A DNA stretch of 64,000 bases from assembly GCF_053078305.1 (NCBI RefSeq), contig NZ_CP166879.1. One strand, given 5' to 3'. The position numbers and the translations under genes were made by a program. The notes under the pieces are model-generated. The model was given only the letters and a program-made list of their open reading frames with translations. It searched no databases and was not told the DNA's origin. Shown here piece after piece: positions 6,339-58,700 of the stretch; within the stretch, counting starts at the first letter, position 1, and each line of letters opens with the position of its first letter.

Positions 6339-6378
6339 TCGTCACTTAATAATTTTGGTTTACCGCGGGCGCGCGTTG

Positions 6379-8151: not shown

Positions 8152-8162
8152 GGAAAACCATC

Positions 8163-8414: not shown

Positions 8415-8415
8415 T

Positions 8416-12362: not shown

Positions 12363-12365
12363 AGG

Positions 12366-16258: not shown

Positions 16259-17429
16259 TATGATTTATATTTCCGCCGTCGGCATGATCAACGCCCTGGG
16301 AAATAACCTTGACGAAATCGCAGCCAACCTAGCTCGCGGTGTCGCCCCCGGAATGCGCCCACGCGCAGGCTGGTTGCAGGGGCATCCGCAGGCGGTCCTG
16401 GCTGGCGTGGATGGCGAGCTTCCGCTTATCCCGGAAAAATTCGCTGCGCATCGCTCGCGCAACAATCAGATCCTGCTGGCGGCGCTGGCGCAGCTCCAGC
16501 CGCAGGTTGATGACGCTATAGCGAAATATGGTCGCGAGCGCATCGCGATTGTACTTGGCACCAGCACCTCCGGCCTGCATGAAGGCGACACGCACGTTAA
16601 CCTACGCACCCACGGGCAGCCGAGCACCACATGGCACTACGCGCAACAGGAACTCGGCGATCCGTCGCGTTTTCTCAGCCACTGGCTGGCGCTCGACGGC
16701 CCGGCCTATACCCTTTCAACCGCCTGCTCTTCCAGCGCCAGAGCGATAATCAGCGGGCGCAGGCTTATCGAAGCGGGGCTGGTCGATGCCGCCATTGTGG
16801 GTGGTGCAGACACCCTGAGCCGGATGCCGATTAACGGTTTTCACAGCCTCGAATCGCTGTCGCCAACCTTATGTCAGCCGTTTGGTCGTGACCGCGCAGG
16901 TATCACCATTGGTGAAGGGGCGGGGCTAATGCTGCTGACCCGGGAACCGCAGCCCATCGCGTTGCTGGGCGTTGGTGAATCGAGCGACGCTTACCATATT
17001 TCAGCCCCGCATCCGCAGGGCGAAGGAGCGATCCGCGCTATTAATCAGGCGCTGACCGATGCGCAGCTTACGCCGGATGACGTCGGCTATATCAACCTGC
17101 ACGGCACCGCCACACAGCTCAACGACCAGATTGAATCAATGGTGGTTAACGCCCTGTTTGGCGAACGCGTACCGTGCAGCTCCACCAAACATTTGACCGG
17201 ACACACGCTGGGCGCAGCGGGCATTACCGAGGCGGCAATTAGTATGTTGATTTTACAGCGTGATTTACCGCTGCCCGCTCAGGACTTCAGCCTGTCGCCG
17301 CGCGATCCCACGCTGCCACCGTGTGGCATTATCGAAAAACCGCAGCCGCTGGCACGTCCGGTGATCCTGTCCAATTCCTTCGCCTTTGGCGGCAATAACG
17401 CCAGCATTCTGCTCGGGAGGGTTTCGTGA
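16251..17429 (+). CDS. beta-ketoacyl-ACP synthase
   Basis: 392 aa; KS active-site Cys context (STACSSS) and His/His motifs (NLHGTAT; GHTLGAAG). Confidence 0.8.
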   Translation: MTDMIYISAVGMINALGNNLDEIAANLARGVAPGMRPRAGWLQGHPQAVLAGVDGELPLIPEKFAAHRSRNNQILLAALAQLQPQVDDAIAKYGRERIAIVLGTSTSGLHEGDTHVNLRTHGQPSTTWHYAQQELGDPSRFLSHWLALDGPAYTLSTACSSSARAIISGRRLIEAGLVDAAIVGGADTLSRMPINGFHSLESLSPTLCQPFGRDRAGITIGEGAGLMLLTREPQPIALLGVGESSDAYHISAPHPQGEGAIRAINQALTDAQLTPDDVGYINLHGTATQLNDQIESMVVNALFGERVPCSSTKHLTGHTLGAAGITEAAISMLILQRDLPLPAQDFSLSPRDPTLPPCGIIEKPQPLARPVILSNSFAFGGNNASILLGRVS

Positions 17430-17890
17430 GCCACTATTTATCCCCCGGCGCTTATCTGCCCCACGACGCGCCCATGTTACTGCTGGAAGACGTGGTGAGC
17501 GTCAGCGATGACAGCGCGGTGTGCCGCGTGACGGTTTCGCCCAGTGGCGTACTGGCACCGTTTCTCGACCCGGACGGCAATCTCCCTGGCTGGTTTGCCC
17601 TTGAACTGATGGCGCAAACCGTCGGCGTCTGGTCTGGCTGGCATCGCCACCAGCAGGGCAAAAACAGTATTGAGTTAGGGATGATACTGGGCGCGCGTGA
17701 ATTGCTTTGCGCCGCTGGCATTCTGCCCGCAGGCCAGACGCTGACCATTACCGTCAAACTGCTGATGCAGGACGATCGCTTCGGCAGTTTTGAGTGCAGC
17801 ATCAACGACGGCGAGGCGACGGGCCGCATTAACACCTTCCAGCCGACCGCGGAAGAACTTACCACCCTGTTTCAACAAGGAGCGTCCTGA
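17426..17890 (+). CDS. hotdog-fold dehydratase (FabA/FabZ-like)
   Basis: 154 aa; overlapping start/stop with neighbours. Confidence 0.65.
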   Translation: MSHYLSPGAYLPHDAPMLLLEDVVSVSDDSAVCRVTVSPSGVLAPFLDPDGNLPGWFALELMAQTVGVWSGWHRHQQGKNSIELGMILGARELLCAAGILPAGQTLTITVKLLMQDDRFGSFECSINDGEATGRINTFQPTAEELTTLFQQGAS

Positions 17891-18621
17891 TGAGTCGTTC
17901 AGTTCTGGTTACTGGTGCCAGCAAAGGCATTGGTCGCGCCATCGCCTGCCAACTGGCGGCAGACGGCTTTAACATTGGCGTTCACTATCACCGTGACGCC
18001 ACAGGCGCTCAGGAAACGCTGAATGCCATTGTCGCCAACGGGGGTAACGGGCGTTTGCTCAGTTTCGACGTCGCAAACCGCGAACAGTGTCGGGAAGTGC
18101 TGGAGCATGAGATCGCGCAACACGGTGCCTGGTACGGCGTGGTCAGTAACGCCGGGATCGCCCGCGATGCCGCTTTTCCGGCTTTAAGCGATGACGACTG
18201 GGATGCGGTGATCCACACCAATCTCGACAGTTTCTACAACGTCATTCAGCCGTGCATTATGCCAATGATCGGCGCGCGCCAGGGTGGGCGCATCATCACG
18301 CTGTCCTCGGTTTCCGGCGTAATGGGCAATCGCGGCCAGGTGAATTACAGCGCTGCCAAAGCCGGAATTATCGGCGCAACAAAAGCGCTGGCTATCGAAC
18401 TCGCAAAGCGCAAAATCACCGTCAATTGCATCGCGCCAGGGCTTATTGATACCGGGATGATCGAAATGGAAGAGAGCGCTCTGAAAGAGGCAATGTCGAT
18501 GATCCCCATGAAACGTATGGGCCAGGCGGAAGAAGTTGCCGGGCTTGCCAGTTATTTAATGTCTGATATTGCGGGTTACGTCACCCGCCAGGTTATTTCC
18601 ATCAACGGAGGGATGTTATGA
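17890..18621 (+). CDS. 3-oxoacyl-ACP reductase (FabG-like SDR)
   Basis: 243 aa; TGASKGIGRAIA Rossmann motif and YSAAK catalytic motif. Confidence 0.85.
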   Translation: MSRSVLVTGASKGIGRAIACQLAADGFNIGVHYHRDATGAQETLNAIVANGGNGRLLSFDVANREQCREVLEHEIAQHGAWYGVVSNAGIARDAAFPALSDDDWDAVIHTNLDSFYNVIQPCIMPMIGARQGGRIITLSSVSGVMGNRGQVNYSAAKAGIIGATKALAIELAKRKITVNCIAPGLIDTGMIEMEESALKEAMSMIPMKRMGQAEEVAGLASYLMSDIAGYVTRQVISINGGML

Positions 18622-19847
18622 CACGTCGCGTAGTGATTACAGGAATGGGTGGCGTGACTGCCTTTGGTGAAAACTGGCAGGACGTTTCTGCACGCTTACT
18701 GGCGTATGAAAATGCGGTGCGCAAAATGCCGGAGTGGCAGGTCTACGACGGGCTGCACACCCTGCTTGGCGCGCCTGTTGATGATTTCACGCTACCGGAG
18801 CACTACACCCGCAAGCGTATCCGTGCGATGGGCCGCGTGTCGCAAATGTCGACCCGTGCCAGCGAGCTGGCGTTAGAGCAGGCAGGGTTGATTGGCGATC
18901 CGATATTAACCAGCGGCGAAACGGGCATTGCGTACGGTTCATCGACCGGCAGTACCGGCCCGGTAAGCGAGTTCGCCACCATGCTGACGGAAAAGCACAC
19001 CAATAACATCACTGGCACCACCTATGTGCAGATGATGCCGCACACCACCGCCGTTAATACTGGCCTCTTTTTCGGCCTGCGCGGGCGGGTGATCCCAACC
19101 TCCAGCGCCTGTACTTCCGGCAGCCAGGCAATCGGTTATGCGTGGGAAGCCATTCGCCACGGTTATCAAACGGTGATGGTTGCTGGTGGTGCCGAAGAGT
19201 TATGTCCTTCAGAAGCAGCGGTATTTGATACGCTTTTCGCCACCAGCCAGCACAATGATGCGCCGAAAACCACACCTTCACCGTTCGATGAAAACCGCGA
19301 CGGGCTGGTGATTGGTGAAGGCGCAGGTACGCTCATTCTCGAAGAACTGGAGCACGCCAAAGCGCGCGGCGCGACCATTTACGGTGAAATCGTCGGCTTT
19401 GCGACTAACTGCGACGCGGCACATATTACCCAGCCGCAGCGCGAAACCATGCAGTATTGTATGGAGCAATCGCTGAAAATCGCCGGGTTAAGCGCACAAG
19501 ATATCGGCTATATTTCAGCGCATGGTACGGCGACCGATCGCGGTGATATGGCAGAAAGTCTGGCGACAGCAACCATTTACGGTGATAATGTGCCGCTCTC
19601 CTCGCTGAAAAGTTATTTTGGTCATACGCTTGGTGCCTGTGGCGCGCTCGAAGCCTGGATGAGTCTGCAAATGATGCGCGAAGGTTGGTTTGCGCCTACG
19701 CTAAACCTGAATAAACCAGACCCGAACTGTGGCGCGCTGGATTACATCATGCATGAAGCCCGAAAGGTTGATTGTGAGTTTTTGCAGAGTAACAACTTTG
19801 CCTTTGGCGGCATTAATACATCCATCATCATTAAGCGCTGGCCCTGA
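18618..19847 (+). CDS. beta-ketoacyl-ACP synthase II (FabF-like)
   Basis: 409 aa; KS Cys context (SSACTSG), HGTAT and GHTLGACG motifs; last gene of the cluster. Confidence 0.85.
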   Translation: MTRRVVITGMGGVTAFGENWQDVSARLLAYENAVRKMPEWQVYDGLHTLLGAPVDDFTLPEHYTRKRIRAMGRVSQMSTRASELALEQAGLIGDPILTSGETGIAYGSSTGSTGPVSEFATMLTEKHTNNITGTTYVQMMPHTTAVNTGLFFGLRGRVIPTSSACTSGSQAIGYAWEAIRHGYQTVMVAGGAEELCPSEAAVFDTLFATSQHNDAPKTTPSPFDENRDGLVIGEGAGTLILEELEHAKARGATIYGEIVGFATNCDAAHITQPQRETMQYCMEQSLKIAGLSAQDIGYISAHGTATDRGDMAESLATATIYGDNVPLSSLKSYFGHTLGACGALEAWMSLQMMREGWFAPTLNLNKPDPNCGALDYIMHEARKVDCEFLQSNNFAFGGINTSIIIKRWP

Positions 19848-32059: not shown

Positions 32060-33658
32060 ATGGTAACTCGGACAATGCAACAAAAGTATCAGTATGATCG
32101 TGTTTTATCCGGCGAACTCCACCCATTCCCTGGCATATACGAGGCGGTTTCCGAACAAATCCTTTTGCTCATTTTTAAAGCACGTCAACTATATCAGGAT
32201 CCAGAATATCGCCCCTGGTTTGAAGAACAGCACAGAGTACTCTCTGCATTACGTGCCAATACAGAGCTCCTGAGAATCTTTAGAGAACAAAGAAGCGCTG
32301 AAGAACCAAAGCTTACTATTGAAGAGTCTACCTCCCCCCAACCCACTCCTTCTGCTCTTACAGATGCGCTTAATGTGATGTGCCATTTATACAATGGTTT
32401 TGATGAAGGAAATATCAGTCTGAAAACCTGGGGGGCGATGCAAGAGGTACAGACAACATCAACCTTTATCAGCCCAGGACCGAGAACCTGGAAAACACCT
32501 GAACTGGCAAAGTTTGTAGGAGATGATTTATTTAATATTCTGACTGAATGTAAGGCCTGGAGTTCACCAATTCCAGCAGAAACCCGACAGGGGTATTGCC
32601 ATCAGGATCTGTCTGTTGCACACTCCTGCACCTCAGAGTTACTGGCACACCTGAATCAATATCATGAAATTGATGAATCAGCAATACTTGCCAGAGTTAT
32701 TGGTATAACAGTTAACGGATTCTACAAGAAAAATAATACAGACCTTCCAGAATGGCTATCCCCCTTTAAAGAGGAACATAAAATATTCAGAGATTGTCCG
32801 GAGCAAAATACCGGGGATGTAATCAGACGGAAAGAACAACTGTTGAAAACAGGACGTACAGAATTCGTGAATAATTTGTGTCGGGTCGCCAACTGGTATG
32901 AAATTGAGTCAATATACGATGAATACGTCCGTCTTTATGCCAATGAAATCATTGACTGGTTCAACAAAACCATGAAGTATTTTAAACCAACAGATTTTAT
33001 CCGATATACATGGAAATTCGCAACAGTTACTCCGGATAAAGATACAGAAACCGGGCATACAACTGCATGGGAAAAGGATTATTGCCAGATAACCATACAA
33101 CGTGATGAACTTCTGAGGTTGATTCACACCAATACCCTTCAGGATGCAGTAATTTATCTTTGTCATTGTCTGCAGAAGGAATACAAGAAATCATCCCAAA
33201 ATGAGATAGAGTTCCCAGGAATAAAACCTCCGACATCAGAGAGTAAAATTAATATAACAAATAATATTAAATTTCATTCTCTCCTGGAGCTCAGTAAAGA
33301 TAATGAGAAGCGTCTGGAAACATTTCAAAAATGGTATGAAAAAAATAAAGTTTTGTTAGAAAGTCATAAACAAAAACGAACAGAGAAGATTGACGTTGCC
33401 GTACGACTTGTAGGGCTGAAAGCCTATGATCTGCATGAAGGGATTCCGGATAGTCCAAAACGAAAAGTTAAAGATGGCATAAATGAAGACATCAAAGCCG
33501 ATACCAGTTTACGCCTGTCAAAGACAAATATAAGTGATACGTCGCTAAACCGTTATCGCCGCACTGTTAAGGAGATTATCAATAACGAAATTGACGCATT
33601 CCTGTTGGAACAGAAGAAAAAAATAAAAGATTTCCCTACAGTGAAGATAGAGATGTGA
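32060..33658 (+). CDS. hypothetical protein, 532 aa, no recognisable domain
   Basis: Long clean ORF in low-GC DNA; hydrophilic, Lys/Glu-rich C-terminal region; no motif I can place. Confidence 0.5.
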   Translation: MVTRTMQQKYQYDRVLSGELHPFPGIYEAVSEQILLLIFKARQLYQDPEYRPWFEEQHRVLSALRANTELLRIFREQRSAEEPKLTIEESTSPQPTPSALTDALNVMCHLYNGFDEGNISLKTWGAMQEVQTTSTFISPGPRTWKTPELAKFVGDDLFNILTECKAWSSPIPAETRQGYCHQDLSVAHSCTSELLAHLNQYHEIDESAILARVIGITVNGFYKKNNTDLPEWLSPFKEEHKIFRDCPEQNTGDVIRRKEQLLKTGRTEFVNNLCRVANWYEIESIYDEYVRLYANEIIDWFNKTMKYFKPTDFIRYTWKFATVTPDKDTETGHTTAWEKDYCQITIQRDELLRLIHTNTLQDAVIYLCHCLQKEYKKSSQNEIEFPGIKPPTSESKINITNNIKFHSLLELSKDNEKRLETFQKWYEKNKVLLESHKQKRTEKIDVAVRLVGLKAYDLHEGIPDSPKRKVKDGINEDIKADTSLRLSKTNISDTSLNRYRRTVKEIINNEIDAFLLEQKKKIKDFPTVKIEM

Positions 33659-33782
33659 TTCGACCTTTATGGGGAAAATGCCTGACCGGGCAGTAGATCA
33701 CAGATGGGATAACATCCCGGTTATCCCCTGTTTGTTCTGCTTCAGGTTGCCAGAGCTCCAGGAACACGCGGCAATCGGCAAA

Positions 33783-34379
33783 TTATGCGGCTTTTCCATT
33801 AACAGATTCGGCCACAAGAACAACACCGTGTTTGTTTCGATCAGGATGTTCACTCCAGATTTCTGATTCAGGAATACTTTCCCCATCATAGCAGATCCGA
33901 TCACCATCAAACGGATAATACCGTGCGGAATCTGTATCTAAGATAAACACCTTAAGATTCGTTGAACGACGCGCTATATGCTGCCAGAGGGCTTTACCTC
34001 CTTCATATTGCTCGTTATCACTTAATAGTATAACGCCTGCTTTTGTGGCTATTGTTTCATAAACAAACGTAGCAAGGCTAACATCACGTACAGCGCCATC
34101 GACAACAATCCCTTCAATCTGAGCAACGTCCTGTTCTTCCCAGAATTTCCGGACAAACACCCCTTCAAGCTGTGAACGACGCTGAAGCTCCAGAGTGGCA
34201 ACAACCTTATGGCGAATATCACCATCAATAACAGAAGGTGCAGCTTCGATTACCGCAGCGAACGGAGTCTTTGGATCCCAGATGATCTGGTAAAGCACAC
34301 CCTGAATAGTTACTCCATCCAGTATCGAAAAACGACGAGCTACAGTAGCAGGGGAGTAAGACATTGGAATGACAGCCAT
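33783..34379 (-). CDS. hypothetical protein, 198 aa
   Basis: ORF convergent with the 532-aa ORF; no family recognised. Confidence 0.45.
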   Translation of the reverse strand: MAVIPMSYSPATVARRFSILDGVTIQGVLYQIIWDPKTPFAAVIEAAPSVIDGDIRHKVVATLELQRRSQLEGVFVRKFWEEQDVAQIEGIVVDGAVRDVSLATFVYETIATKAGVILLSDNEQYEGGKALWQHIARRSTNLKVFILDTDSARYYPFDGDRICYDGESIPESEIWSEHPDRNKHGVVLVAESVNGKAA

Positions 34380-35526
34380 TTTATGACCTAAAATTTGAAA
34401 ACATCAGTATCAATACTGACCTCATCAGTCTGAGCATATATTGATAAAGTTTTTATGTTTACACTCAATAAATACCTTGCCAAACAACTAATAGCGATGT
34501 CTACATTGCCATTCGACATGCTTACAATTTTTGTCAACAAGAAAGTGAATTTATATCAACGGTAAGAAGTAAACACGAGGACACCAAAACCAAATGTACA
34601 CACTTTTGTGCTTTGTGTCCCCTGTGTGTACCCAAATGACAAACTGCAAGAAAATCTAGGCACACACTTATCTAACTTATTGATTTAAATGGTGCGATAA
34701 TAGGAATAAAACAAAAGATAAAAATCAATTGATATTTAACAATTTTTTATTGTTGTGTTTTCAATGATACCCCCAAAAGTACCCCCAAATAATTTTATTC
34801 CCTGTCAAAAACTGATAAATGCTCTCAGATATGAGCATTCCTATAGAGGGTTATATCCAGCAAAAAACATGATCCAGTAAAACATCTCGTCGACCAGTTG
34901 CATGGCACGCTCTGTTTTATCCGGGTGCACGGCGTGATTCTGCCCATGCATTACAATCGCCCTGAAGACTTCACATGTATTACTCACTAATTGTGTATCT
35001 TCTTGTGACGTTGGAGTCAACCGTAGTGTTATCGCGCTACGTTTTTTGGCTCCAGCTATAGTACTGCACTTTTTGAGTAGTGACCTACATTTTTCATGCC
35101 GTGTTCCCCTATCCCCGCCCTCTCATCCGCACATCGAATTTCAAGCCTCCTGCAAACCTGCATGACGCTTTCTGGAATATTGCGCCAGCGTTCAATTTAT
35201 CCCCGTTTCTGCGGATGTCTGACCGTGAGCGGCGGTGACTGGTTAACGACGTTATGCAGATACACCTGCACTTAAAAGATAACCGTAGGGATGTGACGAA
35301 ACTTTTGTAGGCTCAGTTTCGGGAGGGGGAACAATAGTCATTATGACCATTCAACCACCAACCAATATCCATGATTCTCTCCCGAATTAGTGATACACCT
35401 TTACCCCTGAGCTCTTCTCAAACAAAGGCTTTATGAAATGTATTTACAAACATCCGGACAGGGGACTGATACACTTTCATTTGCCCCCTCCCCGGCCGAC
35501 TCTTCCTTCTTACAGATTCTGAATAA

Positions 35527-36927
35527 TTATTGTTCGAACTTCGGAGCAATCAGATTATCAAGATTGAATGTCTTCTCCCATTCTTCCTGTGTGAGTAGCT
35601 TACGTTCGACAACCACTATCTGATGGAGGGATTTACCTGTATGGTATGCTTCGTGCGCCATTTCAGAACACACCTTATATCCCAGATGTGGCTTCAGGAG
35701 AGTCACAATACCGCAGGAATGCATTACCATCTCTGCAGTTCGATCGGAATTGGCTGTAATGCCATCAATGCATTTAGTACGGAGTGTGTTGCAGGCATTC
35801 GTCATCACCTTGAGTGAGGTGAACAGCGCAAAAGTGATAACCGGCTCCATAACGTTAAGCTCAAGCTGACCTGCGGATGCCGCCAGCATCACTGTGGTGT
35901 CCAGCCCCTGAACCAGGAAGCAAGACTGGTTTGTTACTTCCGGGATAACAGGGTTAACCTTACCAGGCATAATGGAAGAACCCGGTTGTAACTGAGGCAG
36001 GTTAATTTCAGCCAGTCCGCAACGGGGACCTGAAGCAAGCAACCGAATGTCATTACAAACCTTGGTAAGCTTCACAGAGAGGCTCTTCATGGCCGAACTA
36101 AGTGCAACGTATGCACCACAGTCGCTTGTGGCAGCGATGAGATCTTCACTGTTCCTGAAATTAATACCTGTGAACTGGGCCAGGTATTTCACGGCTAAAG
36201 CGGGATAATCCGGGTGAGCAGTAACACAGGTACCAATCGCAGTAGCACCAAGGTTTACAACCCGCAGGTGTTCCTGCGCATTGCGGATGACCCGAATTTC
36301 ATCATTAATTGTAAAACCCCAGCCATGAAACTCCTGACCGAGGGTCATTGGCACTGCATCCTGCAGATGAGTGCGTCCCATCTTGAGTACTCTGCTGAAT
36401 TCGTCAGCCTTTTTGTAGAATGCCCCAACAAGGTGTTCAACAGCCTCAAGCAATACATTGCTTCGCAGCAGCAATGCCAGATGTAATGCTGTCGGATATG
36501 TATCATTGGTGGACTGACCAAAATTAGCATGGTCGTTTGGCGAAACGCGTTTGTAATCCCCTTTAACGCTACCAAGTTTTTCTGCAGCAAGATTACAAAT
36601 CACTTCATTGCAGTTCATATTGGTTGACGTTCCGGCTCCTCCCTGAAGCCAGTCGGTCACAAACTGTTCCCGGTACTTACCATCAATTAATTGGTCGCAA
36701 GCCCAGATTAAAGCATCCGCAACATCAGCAGGAATTGTACCTAACTCCTTATTAGCCATCGCAGCTGCTTTTTTCACATAACCGAAGGCAATGATGAAGA
36801 AGGGCTCCTGACTCATTGGCATTTCAGTAATATGGAAATTATCCTCACCACGAAGTGTCTGAACACCATAATAGCAATCATCCGGAACTTCACGCTCACC
36901 AAGGAAATCACTTTCAGTACGAGACAT
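35527..36927 (-). CDS. aspartate ammonia-lyase family enzyme (aspartase/fumarase class II fold)
   Basis: 466 aa; signature GSSIMPGKVNPV and the TNDTYPTA region; about half-identical to AspA by eye. Confidence 0.85.
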   Translation of the reverse strand: MSRTESDFLGEREVPDDCYYGVQTLRGEDNFHITEMPMSQEPFFIIAFGYVKKAAAMANKELGTIPADVADALIWACDQLIDGKYREQFVTDWLQGGAGTSTNMNCNEVICNLAAEKLGSVKGDYKRVSPNDHANFGQSTNDTYPTALHLALLLRSNVLLEAVEHLVGAFYKKADEFSRVLKMGRTHLQDAVPMTLGQEFHGWGFTINDEIRVIRNAQEHLRVVNLGATAIGTCVTAHPDYPALAVKYLAQFTGINFRNSEDLIAATSDCGAYVALSSAMKSLSVKLTKVCNDIRLLASGPRCGLAEINLPQLQPGSSIMPGKVNPVIPEVTNQSCFLVQGLDTTVMLAASAGQLELNVMEPVITFALFTSLKVMTNACNTLRTKCIDGITANSDRTAEMVMHSCGIVTLLKPHLGYKVCSEMAHEAYHTGKSLHQIVVVERKLLTQEEWEKTFNLDNLIAPKFEQ

Positions 36928-37163
36928 AATTTTCTAACTCCATTTTTCAAAAACAACGATTATAATTATGAATTGTTTAACCGGAACTATGCTCTCGGAA
37001 TTTGAACTCTCAACTTCATTGAATAAGAACCTCGATAACATGTGATTTCAATCTGTCAGAATTCTTCTGACAGTCAGTAACTGAATGCAAATTAACTGCC
37101 TGACTAATTATCAAATAGTAACTCTGTAACTACTTCCATAAAGAATGAAAAATTATGATTCTG

Positions 37164-38462
37164 TCAGACCACCATTGGTGCAATCACAAACCCAAATGTC
37201 ACTCCTGCAATAACACCTCCCAACCCGGGTAGCATAAATGGGTGATTTAATACATATTTGCCCACACGGGTTGTACCGGTAGTATCAAATTCCATCGCGG
37301 CCAGTGATGTTGGATACGTTGGAAGCACGAATACTCCCGTAACGGCAACATAAGATGCAAGAATTGCCCAGGTGGGTACATCAAGCGCCACAGCAAGCGG
37401 AATAATTAACGGCGTGGTCGCGCCTTGCGAGTAGAGCAGAGCACAAGTGCCAAAAAGAACCAGCGCCAACAACATCGGATAGGCCTGCAAAATATCGCCA
37501 GCAGTATCCTTAATCTCGGTTAAATGCGCATCAATAAAAGTAGTGCCTAAGGTTACAATGCCGAGAATCACCGCCAGCGAGCTCATCCCCGCACGAAATG
37601 TGGAGGTGAGAATAATGGCATCGGTAGCCGTCTTGCACAGCACCACCATCAGGCAGGCGGCAGAGAGCATACAGATAATAATAATATCGCGTGTTTCCAT
37701 CGGTTTGCCGATATCAAACCCCGGACGCAGTTGAGGGAAAGCGGCAAGAATAACAATGGCGACCGTCGCCAGCAGGAACAATCCTACGGAAAGCGTCGCA
37801 CCAGGTTTGATGCTGCTATTATTCTCGTATTTATGCACCAGTCCTTTTTGCAGACGCTCAAGATAGACCTCGTCATCCTGCAACTCACATCCTTGTCGGG
37901 AAGCAATAAAAGCGGCGACCATCGCGGCGGCAAAAGAGGTAGGAAGACATACCGACATCACCTCAATAAAACTGACGCCGTTAACCTCCATAATAGTGAG
38001 CATAGCAGCCATTGCGGCGCTGATCGGCGAACCAGAAATCGCTACCTGCGAAGCAACGACCGAACCGGCGAGCGTGCGGGAAGGACGAATACCTGACTCT
38101 TTCGCAACTTCAGCAATCACCGGCAGTGTGGAAAAAACAATAAATCCGGTACCGGCCATAATAGTCATTGACCAGGTAATAATCGGCGCGATGATGTTGA
38201 TATATTTCGGGTTACGACGCATAAAATTACCGGCGACGCGTACCAGATAATCCATTCCGCCTGCGGCCTGTAATGCTGAAGCCGCCACAACAACAGTCAT
38301 AATAATCAGGATCACGTCTACTGGCGGTGACCCCATAGGCAGACCAAATCCCAGAGTCAGGATAGCGAGTCCAAGCCCGCCACATAAACCAATACCGATC
38401 CCTCCCTGGCGAATACCAAAAAATATTGCGCCAAGTACTACGATAATTTCCAGCCAAACCAT
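37164..38462 (-). CDS. anaerobic C4-dicarboxylate transporter, DcuA/DcuB family
   Basis: 432 aa, polytopic membrane protein with Dcu-family character. Confidence 0.8.
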   Translation of the reverse strand: MVWLEIIVVLGAIFFGIRQGGIGIGLCGGLGLAILTLGFGLPMGSPPVDVILIIMTVVVAASALQAAGGMDYLVRVAGNFMRRNPKYINIIAPIITWSMTIMAGTGFIVFSTLPVIAEVAKESGIRPSRTLAGSVVASQVAISGSPISAAMAAMLTIMEVNGVSFIEVMSVCLPTSFAAAMVAAFIASRQGCELQDDEVYLERLQKGLVHKYENNSSIKPGATLSVGLFLLATVAIVILAAFPQLRPGFDIGKPMETRDIIIICMLSAACLMVVLCKTATDAIILTSTFRAGMSSLAVILGIVTLGTTFIDAHLTEIKDTAGDILQAYPMLLALVLFGTCALLYSQGATTPLIIPLAVALDVPTWAILASYVAVTGVFVLPTYPTSLAAMEFDTTGTTRVGKYVLNHPFMLPGLGGVIAGVTFGFVIAPMVV

Positions 38463-38528
38463 GATGTTCTCCGTTATAAATATAATTTTTTCTAAAAGTG
38501 AATGACTTTCTGGCTGCGATTAAAATGA

Positions 38529-39248
38529 TTATTGGGTTAGAATATGCTGTTTTCCGACACGATTTTCATACCATTTTATTCCGGCGCGAACGAGTGAAGC
38601 AGTTGAGTCAATATAATGAGAAGGCTGTGCTTTAACAGCTTCTGCCAGAATAACCGGAATTTCCGTACAACCAAGAACAAGAACTTCAGCGCCGCGAGAA
38701 AATAGTATTTCAGCCTGCTCGCTCATCAACTGTTGTGCATGCGTCATATCGCCAGCTTTCAAAGAATAAATACTTTCCATTACTTTTTTCTGACTGTCTG
38801 CATCGGGGCGGATACAGGTAAGTCCCAGCGACTCAATTCCTTTTTGGTATAATCCCATATACAGCGTAGCATTGGTGGCTAACAGGCCAATGCGGGTTTT
38901 ACCACAGTCGCGAACTTCATTGATCGTTGTCTCTACGATACTTAATATATCAATATGACAAGCATCTTTTAATTCTTTGAACCAGTAATGTGCGGTATTA
39001 CAGGGAATAACAATACATTCCGCCCCGGCATCTTCCAGTTTATGCATATAGTCACGCATAACAGGTAACGGCGAGCGCCCATGATGCATTAATGCATCGG
39101 TACGGTCAGGAATATTCGGAATAGAAGAAATAATTAATGGAATATGTTCCTGATCACGTTGTGCGGTGGTAAACGTCACAAATTTATTAAACAGATCGAC
39201 GGTAGCCGCCGGCCCCATTCCGCCGAGCACACCGATTAAACCTTTCAT
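38529..39248 (-). CDS. aspartate/glutamate racemase family protein (putative aspartate racemase)
   Basis: 239 aa; GVLGGMGPAAT N-terminus and the two catalytic-Cys contexts (CNTAH; GCTE). Confidence 0.8.
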   Translation of the reverse strand: MKGLIGVLGGMGPAATVDLFNKFVTFTTAQRDQEHIPLIISSIPNIPDRTDALMHHGRSPLPVMRDYMHKLEDAGAECIVIPCNTAHYWFKELKDACHIDILSIVETTINEVRDCGKTRIGLLATNATLYMGLYQKGIESLGLTCIRPDADSQKKVMESIYSLKAGDMTHAQQLMSEQAEILFSRGAEVLVLGCTEIPVILAEAVKAQPSHYIDSTASLVRAGIKWYENRVGKQHILTQ

Positions 39249-39601
39249 AATCTTTACCTCTCAGAACCTCAATAATAAATCTTAAATAACTACATCTCAT
39301 TTTTTAACAGTCTCCAATGGTTATGAGAAATGCAATGTTGTACAATGTAATGCAAGACTTGCATACTGTGGCTTTGTAATATATGAGCAATTTAGCATTG
39401 TGGCGTGAATACCTTTCATAATGATGAAAACAAACGCTTTTTGACGAGGTGTTAAACTTGTTTCGATACAAAAAATGAATGAATCATGCATAAAACGAAT
39501 AAGAAAATTTCAAATATGTTATCTGTAAACATTACTTTGATTTTCGGGGAAGTATCTTAACTAAGATTTGATAATAGTGGGATAATAGTGGGATTATAGA
39601 A

Positions 39602-40507
39602 ATGAAAAATATAGAGACAAAATGGTTATATGATTTTCTGGCGCTGGAAGCCTGTCGCAGTTTTTGTCAGGCAGCAAAAGAACGTAACCTTTCACAACCA
39701 GCATTCAGCAGAAGAATAAAGGCGTTAGAGTCAGCGATTGGTGTTGTTTTGTTCGATCGTACAACCTCACCTGTACAATTAACTGAAGAGGGTAGGCTTT
39801 TTCACTCCCAGACACGCAGTTTAGTGCAGCAGCTTGAATGCAATCTGAATGAATTAGGGGGGCTAAATTCATTCAATTTGCCCAATATTAAGATTGCAGC
39901 TGCTCACTCATTATCCCTCAGCATATTACCTAAACTGGTGTACTCACTCACTACCTTTGGCGGAGATTTTATCTATCATGTTGAGGCTATTGATGTTGTC
40001 CAAGCCGTAAATACATTACGAGAAGGGAAGAGTGACTTTGTTATTTCATTTCGAGATGAGGAGTTTATGCAATCGCCATTTTGCTACCTGAAACTGTTTG
40101 AGTCTGAGCTATATCCGGTATGTGCTGCTGATCAGCGGGGAAAACCAATTTTTGATATTACCCATTCACAGACCCCTTTGCTCAACTATACTCCAACTTC
40201 TTATATGGGCAGACTGGTTAATCATCATTTAGCAGAGTTAGGAGGGATATCCGGACACACAATTTTTGTATCTTCAATGAGTGAACTACTAAAAAATATG
40301 GCGCTCAATGGACTTGGTATTGCCTGGCTTCCACTCTGGTCAATTGCTGATGAGCTGAAGACCAAACGTCTTGTATGCCCGGGTTCAACTAAATGGACCG
40401 TGCCTATTCAGGCTTATATTTATCGTATGGATACTCGGCTGAATAAAACAGCTGAACACTTTTGGACGATTTTACGAAATAACATTGAAAAACTCAATGG
40501 TGAATAA
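39602..40507 (+). CDS. LysR-family transcriptional regulator, divergent from the racemase operon
   Basis: 301 aa; N-terminal LysR HTH (FCQAAKERNLSQPAFSRRIKALE) and substrate-binding domain. Confidence 0.85.
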   Translation: MKNIETKWLYDFLALEACRSFCQAAKERNLSQPAFSRRIKALESAIGVVLFDRTTSPVQLTEEGRLFHSQTRSLVQQLECNLNELGGLNSFNLPNIKIAAAHSLSLSILPKLVYSLTTFGGDFIYHVEAIDVVQAVNTLREGKSDFVISFRDEEFMQSPFCYLKLFESELYPVCAADQRGKPIFDITHSQTPLLNYTPTSYMGRLVNHHLAELGGISGHTIFVSSMSELLKNMALNGLGIAWLPLWSIADELKTKRLVCPGSTKWTVPIQAYIYRMDTRLNKTAEHFWTILRNNIEKLNGE

Positions 40508-40603
40508 CTAGAAACATCGGGGACAGTTTTCTTCAGGAAGGAGAATCTCAAGAAAGCTTGATATCAGTGATATATTACGTTAACGGAGCGCCGTATTGAC
40601 GCT

Positions 40604-40783
40604 TATTTATTGGTGAGAACTACGTTCCATAGCAGGAGTTCATCAACACGGTTGAAAGGCCATTCCTGCAGTACGCTCAGGATATGGCGCAGATCCGCCT
40701 CCGGATTGCTGATCAGCCCGTACAGTAGCGCACCACGCTCTCCACCGTGATCGTTGTCGAAGAACATGTAGATGATATGACCT
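40604..40783 (-). mobile_element. 3' fragment of an IS66-family transposase gene
   Basis: Translation ...FFDNDHGGERGALLYGLISNPEADLRHILSVLQEWPFNRVDELLLWN resembles the conserved C-terminus of IS66-family TnpC. Confidence 0.45.
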
Positions 40784-40830
40784 TTATATACTCACTATAG
40801 CATTGGTGGGATATTCCAGAGGAGGTCATC

Positions 40831-41607
40831 ATGCATTCGGAAAATATTGCGGCTTACGTCGGGCTGGATGTGCATAAAGAAACGTTGGAGGTTGCTATTG
40901 CTGCACCTGAACGGCTTGGCGAAGTTCATTATTATGGTACGATTAACAACGAAGCCCAGGCTGTACGTCGATTATTTCAGAAATTGCAGGGACTTTACGG
41001 AAACATTCTTTCCTGCTATGAGGCTGGCCCCTGTGGTTTTGGGCTGTATCATCAACTCACAGCGATGAATATAAAATGCCAGGTTATTGCCCCTTCCCGG
41101 ATACCAAAATCACCGACAGACAGAATCAAAAATGATCATCGGGACGCAATTTCTCTCGCCAGGTTACTGCGGGCTGGAGAACTTACCCCTGCCTGGATCC
41201 CTGACCTGACTCATGAAGCTATGCGGGATCTAATCAGAGCCCGTGCAGCAGCTAAACGAGACAGCAGAGTTGCCCGACAGCGAATTCTGAGCATGCTATT
41301 GCGAACAGACAAACATTATGCAGGAAAGCACTGGACAGGAAAACACCGAACCTGGTTAGCTAATCAATCATTTAGTCAGCCATCTCAACAGATTGCTTTT
41401 CAGCACTATTGTCAGAGTCTGGAGCAGATTGAAGATCGCATACAGAAAATTAATGGTCATACGGCTGTTATCACATTTGATCCCGATATTGAGATGTTTC
41501 GCAGTGAGTTTACAGGCCTGAATGGCGGAGCTGATTTTTACGCGCACAGCGTAGAGGAGTTTAAGCGCAAAGGGATTAAGTCACTTGAAATTGAACCGGC
41601 CCCTTGA
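40831..41607 (+). mobile_element. IS110/IS1111-family transposase gene, probably 3'-truncated
   Basis: 258-aa ORF beginning MHSENIAAYVGLDVHKETLEVAIA, typical of the IS110-family DEDD N-terminal domain; ends where the IS3-family element starts. Confidence 0.55.
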
Positions 41608-41611
41608 AACG

Positions 41612-52300: not shown

Positions 52301-53527
52301 TCAGAACTCCCAGTTGACACCCACATTCCAGGAAACATCACCGTCACTGAACGCAGTACCTGCCTTTGCCGCAGCCTGTTCGTTAAAGCGATATCCCATG
52401 CCCACCGCAACAGCCTGCTTGTCACTGTACCCGCCCACTGCCGCTGTGGCGTTAAATTTACCCACACTGTATGGCTGGAAAAGACCGGCCAGCGCTGCTG
52501 ACTGGGCTGCTGCCCGCTTCATTTCCTCATGATTCTCATTAATCTGACGCTGCTGACTGTTCATACGACGCTCATGCGCCTGCAGGGTACGTGCCTGAGA
52601 AGCAATGGCGCGACTGTTGCGTTCACCCACCTGACGGTTACGGCTTACCGCAGCACGGTTTTCTGTGGCCATTTCCTGTGTACGTACCAGCCCTTCCTGT
52701 ACAGTAATTCGTTCACCGGTTCCCTCACCGCGCGTCACATAACCATGACTGTCCACAGCAACGGTACTTCCGGTATTTATCTGCTGTTGCTGGCTGTTCA
52801 GGCGCTCTTCATGCGTCTCCAGCACGTCTCTCTGGGAAAGCAGCCCCCTGGTGTTACGGTTTATGGCCACCGTGTTCCGGATAATATTCTCCCTGTTCTC
52901 TGCAGCAACCGTATCGGTATGGTCACGCGCCTTAAGTGCTTCCGCTGCAATCCGTCCACTGACGTCACTGTACACCTCATCCGCCTTCCGGTTCAGTTGC
53001 CCGACAGTGGCTGCATCCGTATCCCGTGTACCATCACTGACACCACCGAGAACCCGGGTTTTATCCGGTACACGCGGACTGGCCGGGTTTGTGACACCTG
53101 AGTCATATCCGATGTAGACTTCATTTTCACGGGTTGTACCGGACTGCTGACCAAGAGCCACTGAATACCTGTGCATTGCCTGTGCACCCGTACCCAGTGC
53201 TACTGAATTTAAAGCATCTGCAGATGCCCAGCTACCTACTGCCACACCATTAGACGCCTCCGGATTTACATAAGCAGACATCCCCACGGATGTGGAAAAC
53301 GGCGCATGCGCATACGATGCAGAGCCAAGAGCTGTCCCTGCCTTCCCGGCATTCGCCCATGCCCCCACTGCCGTGGAGTCAGTCTCTGATGCAGAGGCTG
53401 TGTCCGGAGACGCCCAGGAACTGCCATCCTGCGCAAACGCCGGAGCACCGGCAATCAGAAAGGAAATAAGCGATAAAGTAATACCGTGTCGATTTATTTT
53501 CATAAACAACCTCATTGATATACACAA
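52301..53527 (-). CDS. trimeric autotransporter adhesin (YadA-like anchor), about 400 aa
   Basis: Signal peptide (probable start at M5 or M9: [24 protein letters not shown]), coiled stalk and C-terminal YadA-type anchor ...[46 protein letters not shown]. Confidence 0.8.
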
Positions 53528-53769: not shown

Positions 53770-55698
53770 TCAGACAATATAAACAGAATTGTGATTTATA
53801 TCCTCAAGCGCTGTATTAACGAAATATATCTGTCCTCCTGCAATACCTGCCTCAACATCATTTCCGGTTTGTTTCAGACATGAAATAAACTCATCTGTCG
53901 ATGTAACAATACCCTTTGATAAAAACAGAAAATCTTTTTCACCCTTATGTTTATTAAAATCCATGATAAATGAATTCCCTTCACAAGCAGCATCAAAGAC
54001 GAAGACATCATGACCAGTACCACCATACAGATAATCATTACCTCCCCCACCATATAACCAGTCGTTACCTTCTGCTCCGTACAACTCATCATTACCAGAA
54101 GCCCCATGAAGATAATCATTCCCGCGACCTCCGTGTAAAAGACTTACTCCTTCTCCCCCGGCACTATGTAATATATCATTTCCGTCAAGACCAAAAATAA
54201 TATTTCCGAACAGACTATCATCTCCGTTTGTACCTTCTGTATGTTTTCCGTAATCAACATTTTTATTACGCCACTTCAGAAGATACCTGTGGTCTGTAAT
54301 CTGCTCTTCTTCTATCTGATAAGGGCTTAGTTTACTCCTCCAGTCACCAGAAAAAGAGATACCTTCAATACCTGTTGCCTCAGTCAGACCGGCTCCCCGT
54401 TCTGAATGGAAAAACAGCGTCCCATCACTGACCCTGTATATATTCCAGTCATCCATTACATCGCTAAGAAGCAGCGTGTCATACCCACTGCCACCATCAA
54501 CCCTGTTTGCTCCCTTACCTGGTTCAATCTTATCATTCCCTCCCCCTCCCTCTATATAGTCGCCACCCTTCCCGCCTGCCAGCAGATTATTGCCATCATT
54601 ACCGATGATGAATACAGGTCTTTCACGACTCTCATCCCCCTTGTCATGAACCCATGAATACCAGGATGTCCAGCTACTTTGCTCATCCACAATGACTGTA
54701 CTGTCCGGTGACATGTAGTCGTAAAACTGAGCCCCTAAAATTCTTTCAAAGGCGTCAGTTTTTAAACCCGCAAAATGCGCACTCCAGCTTCCCAGCGGGA
54801 GTGCAAGCACAGAAAAGGGGATAATATTCCAGAGGAATGAACCATAAAGGTCTGTGTATAAAACAATGTTATCAGGAGAAGAGTCATATTCACGATCCGG
54901 GGTTGTCAAGCCCGGCCCCATTGCTTTAACTGCCTCCCAGAACCCGGCTCCATCTCCCAGCACACGAAATACCGGATCGTTTTCAAAACCGATATTTAAT
55001 ACCTTCCCATCCCCGTCAAATACCAGCGGGGAAGCCCAGGCTATATAGTCAGAATTAGCATAAAAACCATCAGCCAGAGACTCACTGAGTCTGGCCATAA
55101 TGTTAGTCAACCCGCCCCCCAGGCTATAGCCTGTGACAATAACATATTCACCACTTAAACCATTACTGACTGCAAAGTCTCTGATACTTTGAAGCAGGTT
55201 TTCTGCTTCAGACAGCGCTTTTCCATTATTGAGCTGTGTATAATCAACAATATCGCAGATATCATTTGTTCCACAGAATGATATTGCAATTTTCTGTAGA
55301 TTCTGTTGAGCATCAAACAACCCAACAACTTTCAACTGAGGACCAAATCCTGGCGCAGGGTTTCCTGTAACCGGACTGGGAAAGCGATAAAAACCTCTTG
55401 AATCGACATATTCCGAAGATAACCTGAGTTCTTCCACTGTAATATCACGCCAGCCTTCATTAAGAACATCGGTAGAATAATCAATCCTATCTGGGTGCTT
55501 TGCAAATAGCCTGGATACCAGAAAACTTCCTAATCCAAGAACCTTTCCAGTGTTGGAATATATAGCAAGATTATAAGAAGAAGAAACAAGTTCTGCTACA
55601 TGTGCAAAAGAATAAGATTTATAATTAAACACCCCCATAAAATCTCCTCTGAATTCATTTAAATATCCTTCATTTATCCAAGAAGAAACAAAAAGCAT
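53770..55698 (-). CDS. RTX-repeat lipase/esterase (class-3 lipase fold with C-terminal beta-roll; probable T1SS substrate)
   Basis: GYSLGG nucleophile-elbow motif; C-terminal nonapeptide repeats (GGKGGDYIEGGGGNDKI; GGRGNDYLHGASGNDELYGAEGNDWLYGGGGNDYLYGGTGHD); no signal peptide. Start codon uncertain. Confidence 0.75.
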   Translation of the reverse strand: MLFVSSWINEGYLNEFRGDFMGVFNYKSYSFAHVAELVSSSYNLAIYSNTGKVLGLGSFLVSRLFAKHPDRIDYSTDVLNEGWRDITVEELRLSSEYVDSRGFYRFPSPVTGNPAPGFGPQLKVVGLFDAQQNLQKIAISFCGTNDICDIVDYTQLNNGKALSEAENLLQSIRDFAVSNGLSGEYVIVTGYSLGGGLTNIMARLSESLADGFYANSDYIAWASPLVFDGDGKVLNIGFENDPVFRVLGDGAGFWEAVKAMGPGLTTPDREYDSSPDNIVLYTDLYGSFLWNIIPFSVLALPLGSWSAHFAGLKTDAFERILGAQFYDYMSPDSTVIVDEQSSWTSWYSWVHDKGDESRERPVFIIGNDGNNLLAGGKGGDYIEGGGGNDKIEPGKGANRVDGGSGYDTLLLSDVMDDWNIYRVSDGTLFFHSERGAGLTEATGIEGISFSGDWRSKLSPYQIEEEQITDHRYLLKWRNKNVDYGKHTEGTNGDDSLFGNIIFGLDGNDILHSAGGEGVSLLHGGRGNDYLHGASGNDELYGAEGNDWLYGGGGNDYLYGGTGHDVFVFDAACEGNSFIMDFNKHKGEKDFLFLSKGIVTSTDEFISCLKQTGNDVEAGIAGGQIYFVNTALEDINHNSVYIV

Positions 55699-55797: not shown

Positions 55798-58700
55798 TTA
55801 CACTACATTAGTGATTCTCTCATCAATCAGAACCTGTACATCAGGAACCGAAGCATGTGTATAAATGTTATAAGTGATATCCCCTTCAGACTCAGTGCTT
55901 CCTTTAATCCAGTTATACCCATTGTCACTGAGGTTATCCCCGTTATTACCGAGGTCAACCCGAGAACTACCATCACCTGTGACTTTGAGTTTATTACCCT
56001 CTATAGAGGCAGAATTTAAATTCTCAGCCAACAAATTCAGTGCAGCTCCATCTTTCAGTTCAATCTTCTCAAAACCAGAGAATGTGTTGCTTGTGGCATT
56101 ACCCTGATGAATAACCAAGGTATCAAATCCAGAACCACCTTTAATATTTGAAGCATTATCAATATTAGCCACAATATCGATTACATCATTACCAGCACCT
56201 AAATCCAAGGTTGATGATTTGAGCGCAGCAAGAGAATTACCTCCTAACAATAACAGGCTGTCATTTCCATCTTCCATAGTAACAGTCGTTTTCTCTATAA
56301 AACCACCATTATTTGGGTATCCCGAATCATTATCAGGTATTATGATATCTCCATCCAGTCGTTGATACTTAGCGGTTTCTTCAATGCGGTAAGAACCATC
56401 CTTCCCATATACGACATCATAACCGCCTCGACCAAAACCAACTATCAGGATATCATCACCGATACCTGTATTTACCTCGGTCCATAGATCACTATATCCA
56501 ATCCCCAAATCACGACCAGTCACGATGGTATCGTCACCTGCACCAGTATCGACAACCATTGGTCTTACCCAGCGAGAAACGCCCAGATTCCCCAGTGACA
56601 GTTCAGTCGTAATTATATTATCCCCCTCTGTCATTTCCAGTAGAGCGACGTTATTAGCACCATTCTTACTTATTACATAAACATTTGTCCCTACATTTGC
56701 CTCATGAGCCTTAATGGCCAAGAATGATTTAGAATCTTTTTGTAAATCATCATCAGCGATTTTGACCTTTTGACCTGAGCCAGCTGTAACTCCATGACCT
56801 TGCGTCATGTTTACATTACCTGTATAGATAACGGTTCCAATCCGATCTATTGCATCCGGCTTGCCGTTGCCGTTTTCATCCACTGCCGGTACATCGATAC
56901 CGTCAACTTTAGCCAGACGCCCGTTCAGACCGTCCTTCGCATCTCCGGCCGGCAGACCTTCCACCGCTTTCGCCGCATCTGCTTTCGCCGCCGTTACCGC
57001 ATCGTTCTTCGCCGCAAGATCATCATGCTCCTGCTGGGTGATCTTATTGTCAGCCTTCGCCTGAGTCAGCGCCGCTTCTGCTTCTTTTTCCTTCGCTTCC
57101 GCTTCTGCTACCTTGGCTGTCGCTGCATTCACCGCCTCTGCTGCTTCCTCTGCATCCGGCTTGCCGTTGCCGTTTTCATCCACTGCCGGTACATCGATAC
57201 CGTCAACTTTAGCCAGACGCCCGTTCAGACCGTCCTTCGCATCTCCGGCCGGCAGACCTTCCACCGCTTTCGCCGCATCTGCTTTCGCCGCCGTTACCGC
57301 ATCGTTCTTCGCCGCAAGATCATCATGCTCCTGCTGGGTGATCTTATTGTCAGCCTTCGCCTGAGTCAGCGCCGCTTCTGCTTCTTTTTCCTTCGCTTCC
57401 GCTTCTGCTACCTTGGCTGTCGCTGCATTCACCGCCTCTGCTGCTTCCTCTGCATCCGGCTTGCCGTTGCCGTTTTCATCCACTGCCGGTACATCGATAC
57501 CGTCAACTTTAGCCAGACGCCCGTTCAGACCGTCCTTCGCATCTCCGGCCGGCAGACCTTCCACCGCTTTCGCCGCATCTGCTTTCGCCGCCGTTACCGC
57601 ATCGTTCTTCGCCGCAAGATCATCATGCTCCTGCTGGGTGATCTTATTGTCAGCCTTCGCCTGAGTCAGCGCCGCTTCTGCTTCTTTTTCCTTCGCTTCC
57701 GCTTCTGCTACCTTGGCTGTCGCTGCATTCACCGCCTCTGCTGCTTCCTCTGCATCCGGCTTGCCGTTGCCGTTTTCATCCACTGCCGGTACATCGATAC
57801 CGTCAACTTTAGCCAGACGCCCGTTCAGACCGTCCTTCGCATCTCCGGCCGGCAGACCTTCCACCGCTTTCGCCGCATCTGCTTTCGCCGCCGTTACCGC
57901 ATCGTTCTTCGCCGCAAGATCATCATGCTCCTGCTGGGTGATCTTATTGTCAGCCTTCGCCTGAGTCAGCGCCGCTTCTGCTTCTTTTTCCTTCGCTTCC
58001 GCTTCTGCTACCTTGGCTGTCGCTGCATTCACCGCCTCTGCTGCTTCCTCTGCATCCGGCTTGCCGTTGCCGTTTTCATCCACTGCCGGTACATCGATAC
58101 CGTCAACTTTAGCCAGACGCCCGTTCAGACCGTCCTTCGCATCTCCGGCCGGCAGACCTTCCACCGCTTTCGCCGCATCTGCTTTCGCCGCCGTTACCGC
58201 ATCGTTCTTCGCCGCAAGATCATCATGCTCCTGCTGGGTGATCTTATTGTCAGCCTTCGCCTGAGTCAGCGCCGCTTCTGCTTCTTTTTCCTTCGCTTCC
58301 GCTTCTGCTACCTTGGCTGTCGCTGCATTCACCGCCTCTGCTGCTTCCTCTGCATCCGGCTTGCCGTTGCCGTTTTCATCCACTGCCGGTACATCGATAC
58401 CGTCAACTTTAGCCAGACGCCCGTTCAGACCGTCCTTCGCATCTCCGGCCGGCAGACCTTCCACCGCTTTCGCCGCATCTGCTTTCGCCGCCGTTACCGC
58501 ATCGTTCTTCGCCGCAAGATCATCATGCTCCTGCTGGGTGATCTTATTGTCAGCCTTCGCCTGAGTCAGCGCCGCTTCTGCTTCTTTTTCCTTCGCTTCC
58601 GCTTCTGCTACCTTGGCTGTCGCTGCATTCACCGCCTCTGCTGCTTCCTCTGCATCCGGCTTGCCGTTGCCGTTTTCATCCACTGCCGGTACATCGATAC

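Follow-up and report, generated by a model that had tools for sequence, protein, structure and literature searches.

A stretch of 64,000 nucleotides from contig NZ_CP166879.1 (RefSeq assembly GCF_053078305.1), hereafter the window, carries between positions 35527 and 40507 a LysR-type regulator gene divergent from genes for a racemase, a Dcu carrier and an aspartase. The regulator, racemase and carrier very likely form an accessory module for D-aspartate catabolism, the known AspR-DcuA system, and comparison of sequences indicates that the aspartase was recruited to it from a separate accessory unit, organised as aspartase-dcu-ansB. All four open reading frames (ORFs) are intact and lie exactly where the original prediction, made from the DNA alone, had placed them.

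The minus strand encodes a pyridoxal phosphate-independent aspartate racemase of 239 amino acids (38529–39248), orthologous to Orf8 (AspR) of the Shigella resistance locus (SRL) pathogenicity island (PAI); a DcuA-type C4-dicarboxylate/aspartate transporter of 432 amino acids (37164–38462), orthologous to Orf9 of the same island; and an aspartate ammonia-lyase paralogue of 466 amino acids (35527–36927). The LysR-type regulator, 301 amino acids long and encoded on the plus strand (39602–40507), is a paralogue of HypT/YjiE and the counterpart of SRL PAI Orf7. Families were assigned by comparing NCBIfam profile scores with the curated cut-offs. The predicted co-orientation of the racemase, Dcu and aspartase genes was borne out, with the LysR gene divergent at a distance of 353 bp; the predicted tight spacing holds for racemase and Dcu (66 bp), but not for Dcu and aspartase (236 bp).

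The arrangement is no chance juxtaposition: its LysR-racemase-Dcu part recurs across species, the four-gene form recurs in E. coli genomes, and all four genes are under purifying selection (dN/dS 0.03–0.20). Of 5426 complete E. coli genomes, 221 have the racemase unit fused to the aspartase unit, the four-gene form typified by E. coli locus L001. The window is E. coli DNA, and its module is 99.9% identical to that on a 1-Mb replicon, annotated as a plasmid, of the Shiga toxin-producing E. coli (STEC) strain STEC639 from sheep (CP061233.1).

The core corresponds to a published D-aspartate module

The module is not new, its core having been published in 2020. Henriquez et al. (PMC6980539) described orf7, orf8 and orf9 of the Shigella flexneri SRL PAI as coding for a LysR regulator, a racemase and DcuA, respectively. 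Loss of the SRL PAI from S. flexneri YSH6000 abolished respiration of D-aspartate and affected no other D-amino acid, while supplying orf8-orf9 to SRL-negative S. flexneri and S. sonnei allowed them again to grow on D-aspartate and to convert it to the L-isomer; the pair is necessary and sufficient for both traits, and a single gene of the two is not enough (PMC6980539). The basis provided there is genetic for uptake by Orf9 and in vivo for racemisation by Orf8. The import of aspartate, possibly as the D-isomer, and its racemisation, as proposed for the window, have thereby been demonstrated experimentally for the orthologous SRL PAI genes (PMC6980539), and a review from 2020 already counts "AspR-DcuA" as SRL PAI cargo.

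The primers used in that study for cloning orf8-orf9 match E. coli locus L003 (strain 2313) with 0 mismatches; L003 therefore carries the SRL-type allele. Identity between this allele and the window is 90.8% for the racemase, 97.9% for Dcu and 79.4% for LysR at the protein level. In the published construct containing orf8 alone, the forward primer, ATGGGGCCGGCAGCTAC, begins at an internal codon, that of Met11 (window 39202–39218; L003 11029–11045). The first ten residues (MKGLIGVLGG), part of an invariant N-terminal motif, are missing from this construct, and its negative complementation is therefore uninformative for orf8.

The transporter scores 582.8 bits against the DcuA-type model NF006927 (cut-off 369), with residues 1–431 of 433 aligned, and less, 459.5 bits, against the DcuB-type model NF009136. 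Its gene starts 66 bp past the racemase stop codon and has a GGAGAA Shine-Dalgarno sequence. Identity to DcuA of E. coli K-12 is 50%. We also considered whether the window is part of the SRL PAI and discarded this, as similarity is confined to the three genes (37173–40479) and the flanks differ.

The racemase

The racemase, which has an ATG start and a GAGAGG Shine-Dalgarno sequence, belongs to the Asp/Glu racemase superfamily (PF01177), with 188.5 bits against TIGR00035 (cut-off 93.1). The closest solved structures are the Salmonella putative aspartate racemase 3S7Z (E = 2e-76) and AspR from Pyrococcus, 1JFL. In an alignment of 15 homologues that include the Pyrococcus horikoshii enzyme (PhAspR), Cys83 and Cys194, which correspond to the catalytic Cys82 and Cys194 of PhAspR, are invariant; so are Arg49 and Lys164, corresponding to Arg48 and Lys164 that line the PhAspR site. 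The latter two, both basic, reportedly bind the carboxylate of the substrate side chain. In a neighbour-joining tree of 83 homologues, the racemases of the window, the SRL type and E. albertii form a single tight clade, the E. albertii allele being nearest to that of the window (97%). By analogy with the 90.8%-identical SRL allele, the sole source of in vivo support, the window protein would interconvert D- and L-aspartate.

We give very little credence to the alternative that the protein is a cysteate racemase, CuyB, and that the substrate of the module is cysteate or a different sulfonated analogue of aspartate. The model NF052483 ("racemase_CuyB") is passed with 251.9 bits (cut-off 190), some RefSeq E. 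coli records carry this name, and cysteate is isosteric with aspartate. Furthermore, CuyB from Bilophila wadsworthia (BwCuyB) was assayed with cysteate, cysteine and serine, aspartate not being among the substrates, so the two activities may overlap. However, the same model also accepts the P. horikoshii aspartate racemase fragment (232.7 bits), the D-aspartate-active SRL allele (249.1 bits) and the Salmonella 3S7Z protein. A homologue of DcyD or CuyA was not found in the window (best tblastn E = 8.6), and no scanned neighbour of the module matches a CuyA/DcyD-type family; the neighbours encode a Dcu carrier and an aspartase, and the published phenotype is specific for D-aspartate.

The tree bears on the same question through linkage to DcyD/CuyA-like genes, BwCuyB itself not being among the 83 proteins. 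Within the main proteobacterial groups of the tree, the six racemases whose gene is immediately preceded by a DcyD/CuyA-like one make up a clade of their own and are 38–41% identical to the window protein, which falls in a gamma-proteobacterial clade consistently paired with a HypT-like LysR gene. Cysteate racemase was rejected as the identity of the protein on account of the CuyB model passing Pyrococcus AspR, the lack of a CuyA/DcyD homologue and the separate clade. Because the model is unspecific and BwCuyB comes without an aspartate assay, and for the last two reasons as well, the automatic name "cysteate racemase CuyB" is probably unreliable here. RefSeq E. coli genomes name the same protein inconsistently, as cuyB or as aspartate/glutamate racemase. 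Specificity for another amino acid, one of the outcomes named beforehand as overturning the prediction, is not indicated by the sequence.

The aspartase paralogue

The lyase scores 678 bits against the subfamily model NF008909 (cut-off 510) and is 54–55% identical to E. coli AspA (55.2% and 54% with two ways of aligning), versus 36% to FumC. Its best matches in the PDB are all aspartases, fumarases scoring far lower. A residue check covering the SS-loop (GSSIMPGKVNP) and the substrate-binding residues of Bacillus AspB showed that all 11 ligand-binding and catalytic residues of the latter are kept (Thr101, Ser140, Thr141, Asn142, Thr187, His188, Ser318, Ser319, Met321, Lys324 and Asn326). The motifs GAGTS, QSTND and DAVP are as in AspA, whereas FumC has GSGTQ, QSSND and DATP. 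Identity as a fumarase or an argininosuccinate lyase, named beforehand as an outcome that would overturn the prediction, was rejected at the level of sequence on profiles, PDB matches and signature motifs, and the protein remains an aspartase homologue. It would be expected to deaminate L-aspartate to fumarate and ammonium. With a dN/dS of 0.034, its gene is under purifying selection.

The three-gene form, a LysR gene divergent from racemase and Dcu genes, is spread over Enterobacterales and Pasteurellaceae, where it was found in at least 10 species (E. albertii, four Citrobacter, Budvicia, Providencia, Edwardsiella, Rodentibacter and Pasteurella bettyae among the hosts), and the racemase-Dcu pair in 578 genomes in total. 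None of these three-gene loci from other genera and species has an aspartase. DNA similarity between the window and these loci ends at 37166–37173, at the Dcu stop codon, with the exception of Rodentibacter, the most diverged, where it ends at 37228.

The aspartase comes from a different accessory unit, in which aspartase-dcu-ansB is accompanied by dcuR and a gene for a FadR-type regulator, and whose aspartase in E. coli is 96–97% identical to that of the window at the DNA level and 98.9% at the protein level (L001 copy). On plasmid pECY44-2 (L087, CP069703.1), aspartase-dcu-ansB occurs without any racemase. Similarity of the window to the four-gene E. coli islands ends at 35364, where the downstream dcu would begin. 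Compared with the L001 allele, synonymous divergence (dS) reaches 0.68 in the racemase gene but 0.14 in that of the aspartase, a fivefold difference that reveals a recombinational mosaic.

The unit is part of a wider mobile E. coli set for aspartate and asparagine (L087; L001 1–12009), in which aspartase-dcu-ansB, dcuR and the FadR-type gene are accompanied by pepT-dcuC and an isoaspartyl peptidase/asparaginase gene. L001 adds two further Dcu-family genes and an argH-like lyase gene. Both chromosomal islands and a conjugative IncF/IncI plasmid carry the set.

Racemase genes have been joined by comparable partners elsewhere. In two proteobacterial metagenome-assembled genomes (MAGs; L017 6952–15256, and L022), a LysR gene is divergent from racemase-frdC-frdA-frdB-aspartase-dcu, which looks like a compact cassette with a complete route from D- and L-aspartate to fumarate respiration. 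Paenibacillus farraposensis has the order GltP-type symporter-racemase-AspA, a betaproteobacterial MAG has racemase-aspartase, and a DctA/GltP-like carrier gene adjoins the racemase gene in Dickeya, Xenorhabdus, Acinetobacter baylyi and Vibrio penaeicida. Aspartase, like transporters of acidic amino acids or C4-dicarboxylates, has thus been recruited repeatedly, and this gene context is independent support for aspartate as the substrate.

The junction between Dcu and aspartase

The spacer between the Dcu and aspartase genes (36928–37163, minus strand) is 93% conserved in E. coli of the L001 type. It contains a hairpin with a 9-bp stem (37053–37073) lacking a U-run, and its overall fold is no better than that of shuffled sequence (z = −0.62). 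A scan for promoters and terminators, which was at chance level overall and is used here descriptively, gave a weak promoter-like site (37013–36986) and no canonical terminator between the two genes. A GC-rich hairpin that was missed by the consensus terminator scan, 32 nt past the aspartase stop codon (35454–35495, minus strand), resembles a terminator and may mark the end of the unit. The single tight operon originally envisaged is not supported as far as the aspartase is concerned, since this gene belongs to a different accessory unit and is fused behind the 236-bp spacer. It may be transcribed by read-through, from a promoter of its own in the spacer, or both.

There is an appreciable, though minor, chance that the junction merely brings two unrelated units side by side, a functional LysR-racemase-Dcu unit and an independently expressed aspartase left over from a truncated L-asparagine/L-aspartate unit. 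The end of homology with other genera at the Dcu stop codon, the racemase-free aspartase with dcu and ansB on pECY44-2, the deletion of the downstream partners at 35364, the spacer with its promoter-like site, and the mosaic origin evident from dS would all agree with such a leftover. On the other hand, 221 complete E. coli genomes have kept the fusion, the genes are not separated by a terminator, the linkage of racemase and aspartase arose independently in MAGs, Paenibacillus and a betaproteobacterium, and one unit makes the compound on which the other acts. On balance we lean slightly towards an aspartase that is functionally dedicated to the D-aspartate module.

The regulator and the control region

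The regulator scores 379.2 bits against the HypT-like model NF007488 (cut-off 301). It shares 54% of its residues with HypT of K-12, 79% with the SRL-type protein and 90% with that of the L001 type. In HypT, Met123, Met206, Met230, Cys4 and Cys150 have been tied to activation by hypochlorous acid (HOCl), oligomerisation and stability (PMC3792123). Three of these five are missing from the window protein, in which the N-terminal segment with Cys4 is absent, Cys150 is replaced by Phe and Met123 by Leu; Met206 and Met230 are kept. Nor is the gene at the native site of hypT, which in K-12 is downstream of yjiHG-iadA; it is divergent from the racemase gene instead. The protein is expected to respond to D-aspartate or a related metabolite rather than to HOCl, and the label "HypT" is probably misleading for this clade.

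The control region shared by racemase and regulator genes (39249–39601, 353 bp) contains promoter-like hexamers on both strands, not above chance. Its racemase-proximal 130 bp are conserved among three E. coli alleles, unlike the remainder, which has diverged. The conserved block holds a candidate LysR operator, ATGCAA-N14-ATGCAAGACTTGCAT (39330–39364), which includes a perfect T-N11-A dyad (39350–39364), the classical LysR box. The pattern ATGC-N5-TTGCAT is also present 74–200 bp upstream of the racemase gene in E. albertii, Citrobacter, Budvicia, Providencia, Rodentibacter and the two MAGs; with ten specified bases, its estimated chance of occurring in about 350 bp, both strands considered, is about 7e-4.

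Linkage of HypT-family LysR genes to aspartate-related genes extends well outside the module, and HypT-like genes neighbour nearly all gamma-proteobacterial members of the window racemase clade. In Salmonella (L088 and L089) and Hafnia (L020), a racemase homologue is convergent to yjiH-yjiG-iadA-hypT, and in K-12 (L005, 4557378–4560680) hypT directly follows iadA, which codes for isoaspartyl dipeptidase.

Proposed pathway

In the proposed pathway, the DcuA-type carrier would take up D-aspartate, as genetics shows for the 98%-identical Orf9, probably in exchange for fumarate or succinate, as extrapolated from DcuA and L-aspartate. DcuA is an L-aspartate/C4-dicarboxylate antiporter and a nitrogen shuttle (PMC10634366). 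The two-cysteine racemase would convert D- to L-aspartate, as its 91%-identical counterpart Orf8 does in vivo, and the linked aspartase paralogue is predicted from its sequence to yield fumarate and ammonium. Fumarate enters the tricarboxylic acid cycle aerobically or supports fumarate respiration anaerobically. The HypT-like LysR protein would control the racemase-Dcu promoter through the ATGC-N5-TTGCAT (T-N11-A) operator, probably in response to D-aspartate.

It is unlikely that the module mainly serves to detoxify D-aspartate, or runs in the L-to-D direction for D-aspartate export, instead of having a nutritional role. D-aspartate did inhibit an SRL-negative strain on mannose, and detoxification was proposed by the authors (PMC6980539); racemases are reversible, and Dcu carriers are exchangers. 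The linked aspartase, and frdCAB in the MAG loci, nevertheless point to catabolism. The peptidoglycan of E. coli, moreover, is not known to contain D-aspartate.

Several observations weigh against the catabolic pathway in its four-gene form. The lyase falls below the cut-off of the AspA equivalog model TIGR00839 (641.3 against 681.2 bits), and PGAP calls the racemase "cysteate racemase" in some genomes. With 236 bp between the Dcu and aspartase genes, co-regulation and co-transcription of the aspartase are only possible. The aspartase is also absent from the SRL module that was tested and from every three-gene locus outside E. coli, and is therefore dispensable for the phenotype wherever a chromosomal aspA exists.

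The core biology, then, is already published, and the added value of this analysis is comparative. In the searchable literature no description of the four-gene variant was found, the searches yielding only the SRL paper and the review citing it. What is new is the architectural variant with an aspartase, its mosaic origin, the distribution across genera, the candidate operator and two probable annotation errors (CuyB and HypT). The labels "cysteate racemase" and "HypT" are attached to many such genes in RefSeq, and both are probably misleading for the clade.

Two broader ideas are offered tentatively, and we consider both doubtful. One is that the locus constitutes a self-contained cassette for conversion of D-aspartate to fumarate, independent of chromosomal aspA-dcuA. 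The other, suggested by the near-constant pairing with the racemase clade across gamma-proteobacteria and by the iadA neighbour in Salmonella, Hafnia and K-12, is that HypT/YjiE proteins were ancestrally regulators of D-aspartate and isoaspartyl salvage, and not dedicated hypochlorite sensors. Such a cassette would allow gut E. coli to exploit D-aspartate as a nitrogen shuttle and as a precursor of the electron acceptor in fumarate respiration, and the D-aspartate could come, for instance, from Gram-positive peptidoglycan or aged proteins. Enterobacteria in the gut use L-aspartate as a nitrogen source and as a major substrate of fumarate respiration (PMC10634366 and work cited there). A mobile module opening the D-aspartate pool, in this form with an aspartase of its own, would give pathogenic E. 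coli and Shigella a broader nutrient niche, which would explain the spread of the module on pathogenicity islands.

Island context and other features of the window

The D-aspartate module follows about 660 bp after a remnant of a tRNA-Thr gene, a copy of its 3' end 17 bp long (34689–34705), near which are ORFs at 32060–33658 and 33783–34379. In other E. coli, strain EA2 for example, this pair of hypothetical ORFs ends at an intact tRNA-Thr gene beside proA-proB; ARAGORN detected no tRNA gene in the window. The 17-bp sequence looks like an attachment site (att) remnant at the junction of tandem thrW-type islands. To the right of the LysR gene, similarity to other E. coli module alleles ends at about 40530, and a nest of insertion sequences (IS; 40831–44240) contains a truncated IS110-family gene of 258 amino acids, an intact IS110-family transposase gene (42229–43281) and an IS3/IS2-type OrfB (43359–44240).

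Further to the right, the minus strand at 55798–62871 contains an ORF of 2357 amino acids without an NCBIfam match, overlapped on the opposite strand by an ORF of 1844 amino acids (56794–62328, plus strand), which suggests a highly repetitive sequence. In STEC639 the corresponding region is annotated as "RTX toxin". Adjoining the 2357-residue ORF are genes for a PueAB/RTX-lipase-like protein (53770–55698) and a YadA-like trimeric autotransporter (52301–53527).

In the left part of the window, a biosynthetic cluster (5280–19847) resembles the aryl-polyene/flexirubin type and includes genes for an FlxJ-family methyltransferase, a glycosyltransferase, an RND/HAE3-like exporter, a DUF3261 protein, two ketoacyl-ACP synthases and FabG. 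At 24008–27089, a gene for a PatB-family C-S lyase overlaps the start of an ORF of 666 amino acids ("enterotoxin" in STEC639). The latter is followed by Inovirus-Gp2-type and AlpA-type island genes, families that are also listed for the SRL PAI backbone.

Comparison with known systems

The system most like the window module is orf7-orf8-orf9 of the SRL PAI. The two share gene order and orientation, with LysR divergent from racemase-Dcu, as well as the operator block upstream of the racemase gene, and both reside in horizontally acquired islands. In the SRL-type unit, an IS600 remnant directly follows Dcu and there is no aspartase, whereas in the window the aspartase paralogue is downstream. 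The window module has no SRL resistance locus adjoining; a thrW-type att remnant and IS110 and IS3 copies are present instead.

The Salmonella STM4510-type putative aspartate racemase (3S7Z), the closest structure, also adjoins a HypT-family LysR gene. It is about 53–54% identical to the window racemase and its gene is convergent to the iadA-hypT operon (yjiHG-iadA-hypT); unlike in the window, neither a Dcu nor an aspartase gene adjoins it. CuyB-CuyA of B. wadsworthia (PMC11193023) has in common with the window the PF01177 two-thiol racemase superfamily and the match to the CuyB model. The window racemase differs in having no CuyA partner, in its clade and in its neighbours.

The aspA-dcuA pair of K-12 also combines an aspartase with a DcuA-type L-aspartate/C4-dicarboxylate carrier, converting aspartate to fumarate and ammonium. 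However, AspA and DcuA are only 55% and 50% identical to the window proteins, the gene order is reversed (aspA, then dcuA), and there is neither a racemase nor a divergent LysR gene. The K-12 locus also has the small RNA (sRNA) AspX; no Rfam match to a structured RNA, riboswitch or AspX-like sRNA was obtained at E ≤ 0.1 over positions 30000–46000 of the window. The E. coli unit from which the window aspartase appears to derive, aspartase-dcu-ansB, is analogous to ansB-aspA-dcuA of Actinobacillus succinogenes (PMC10634366). The dcu and ansB genes that follow the aspartase in this unit are missing from the window, where the aspartase gene has been joined to the racemase unit instead.

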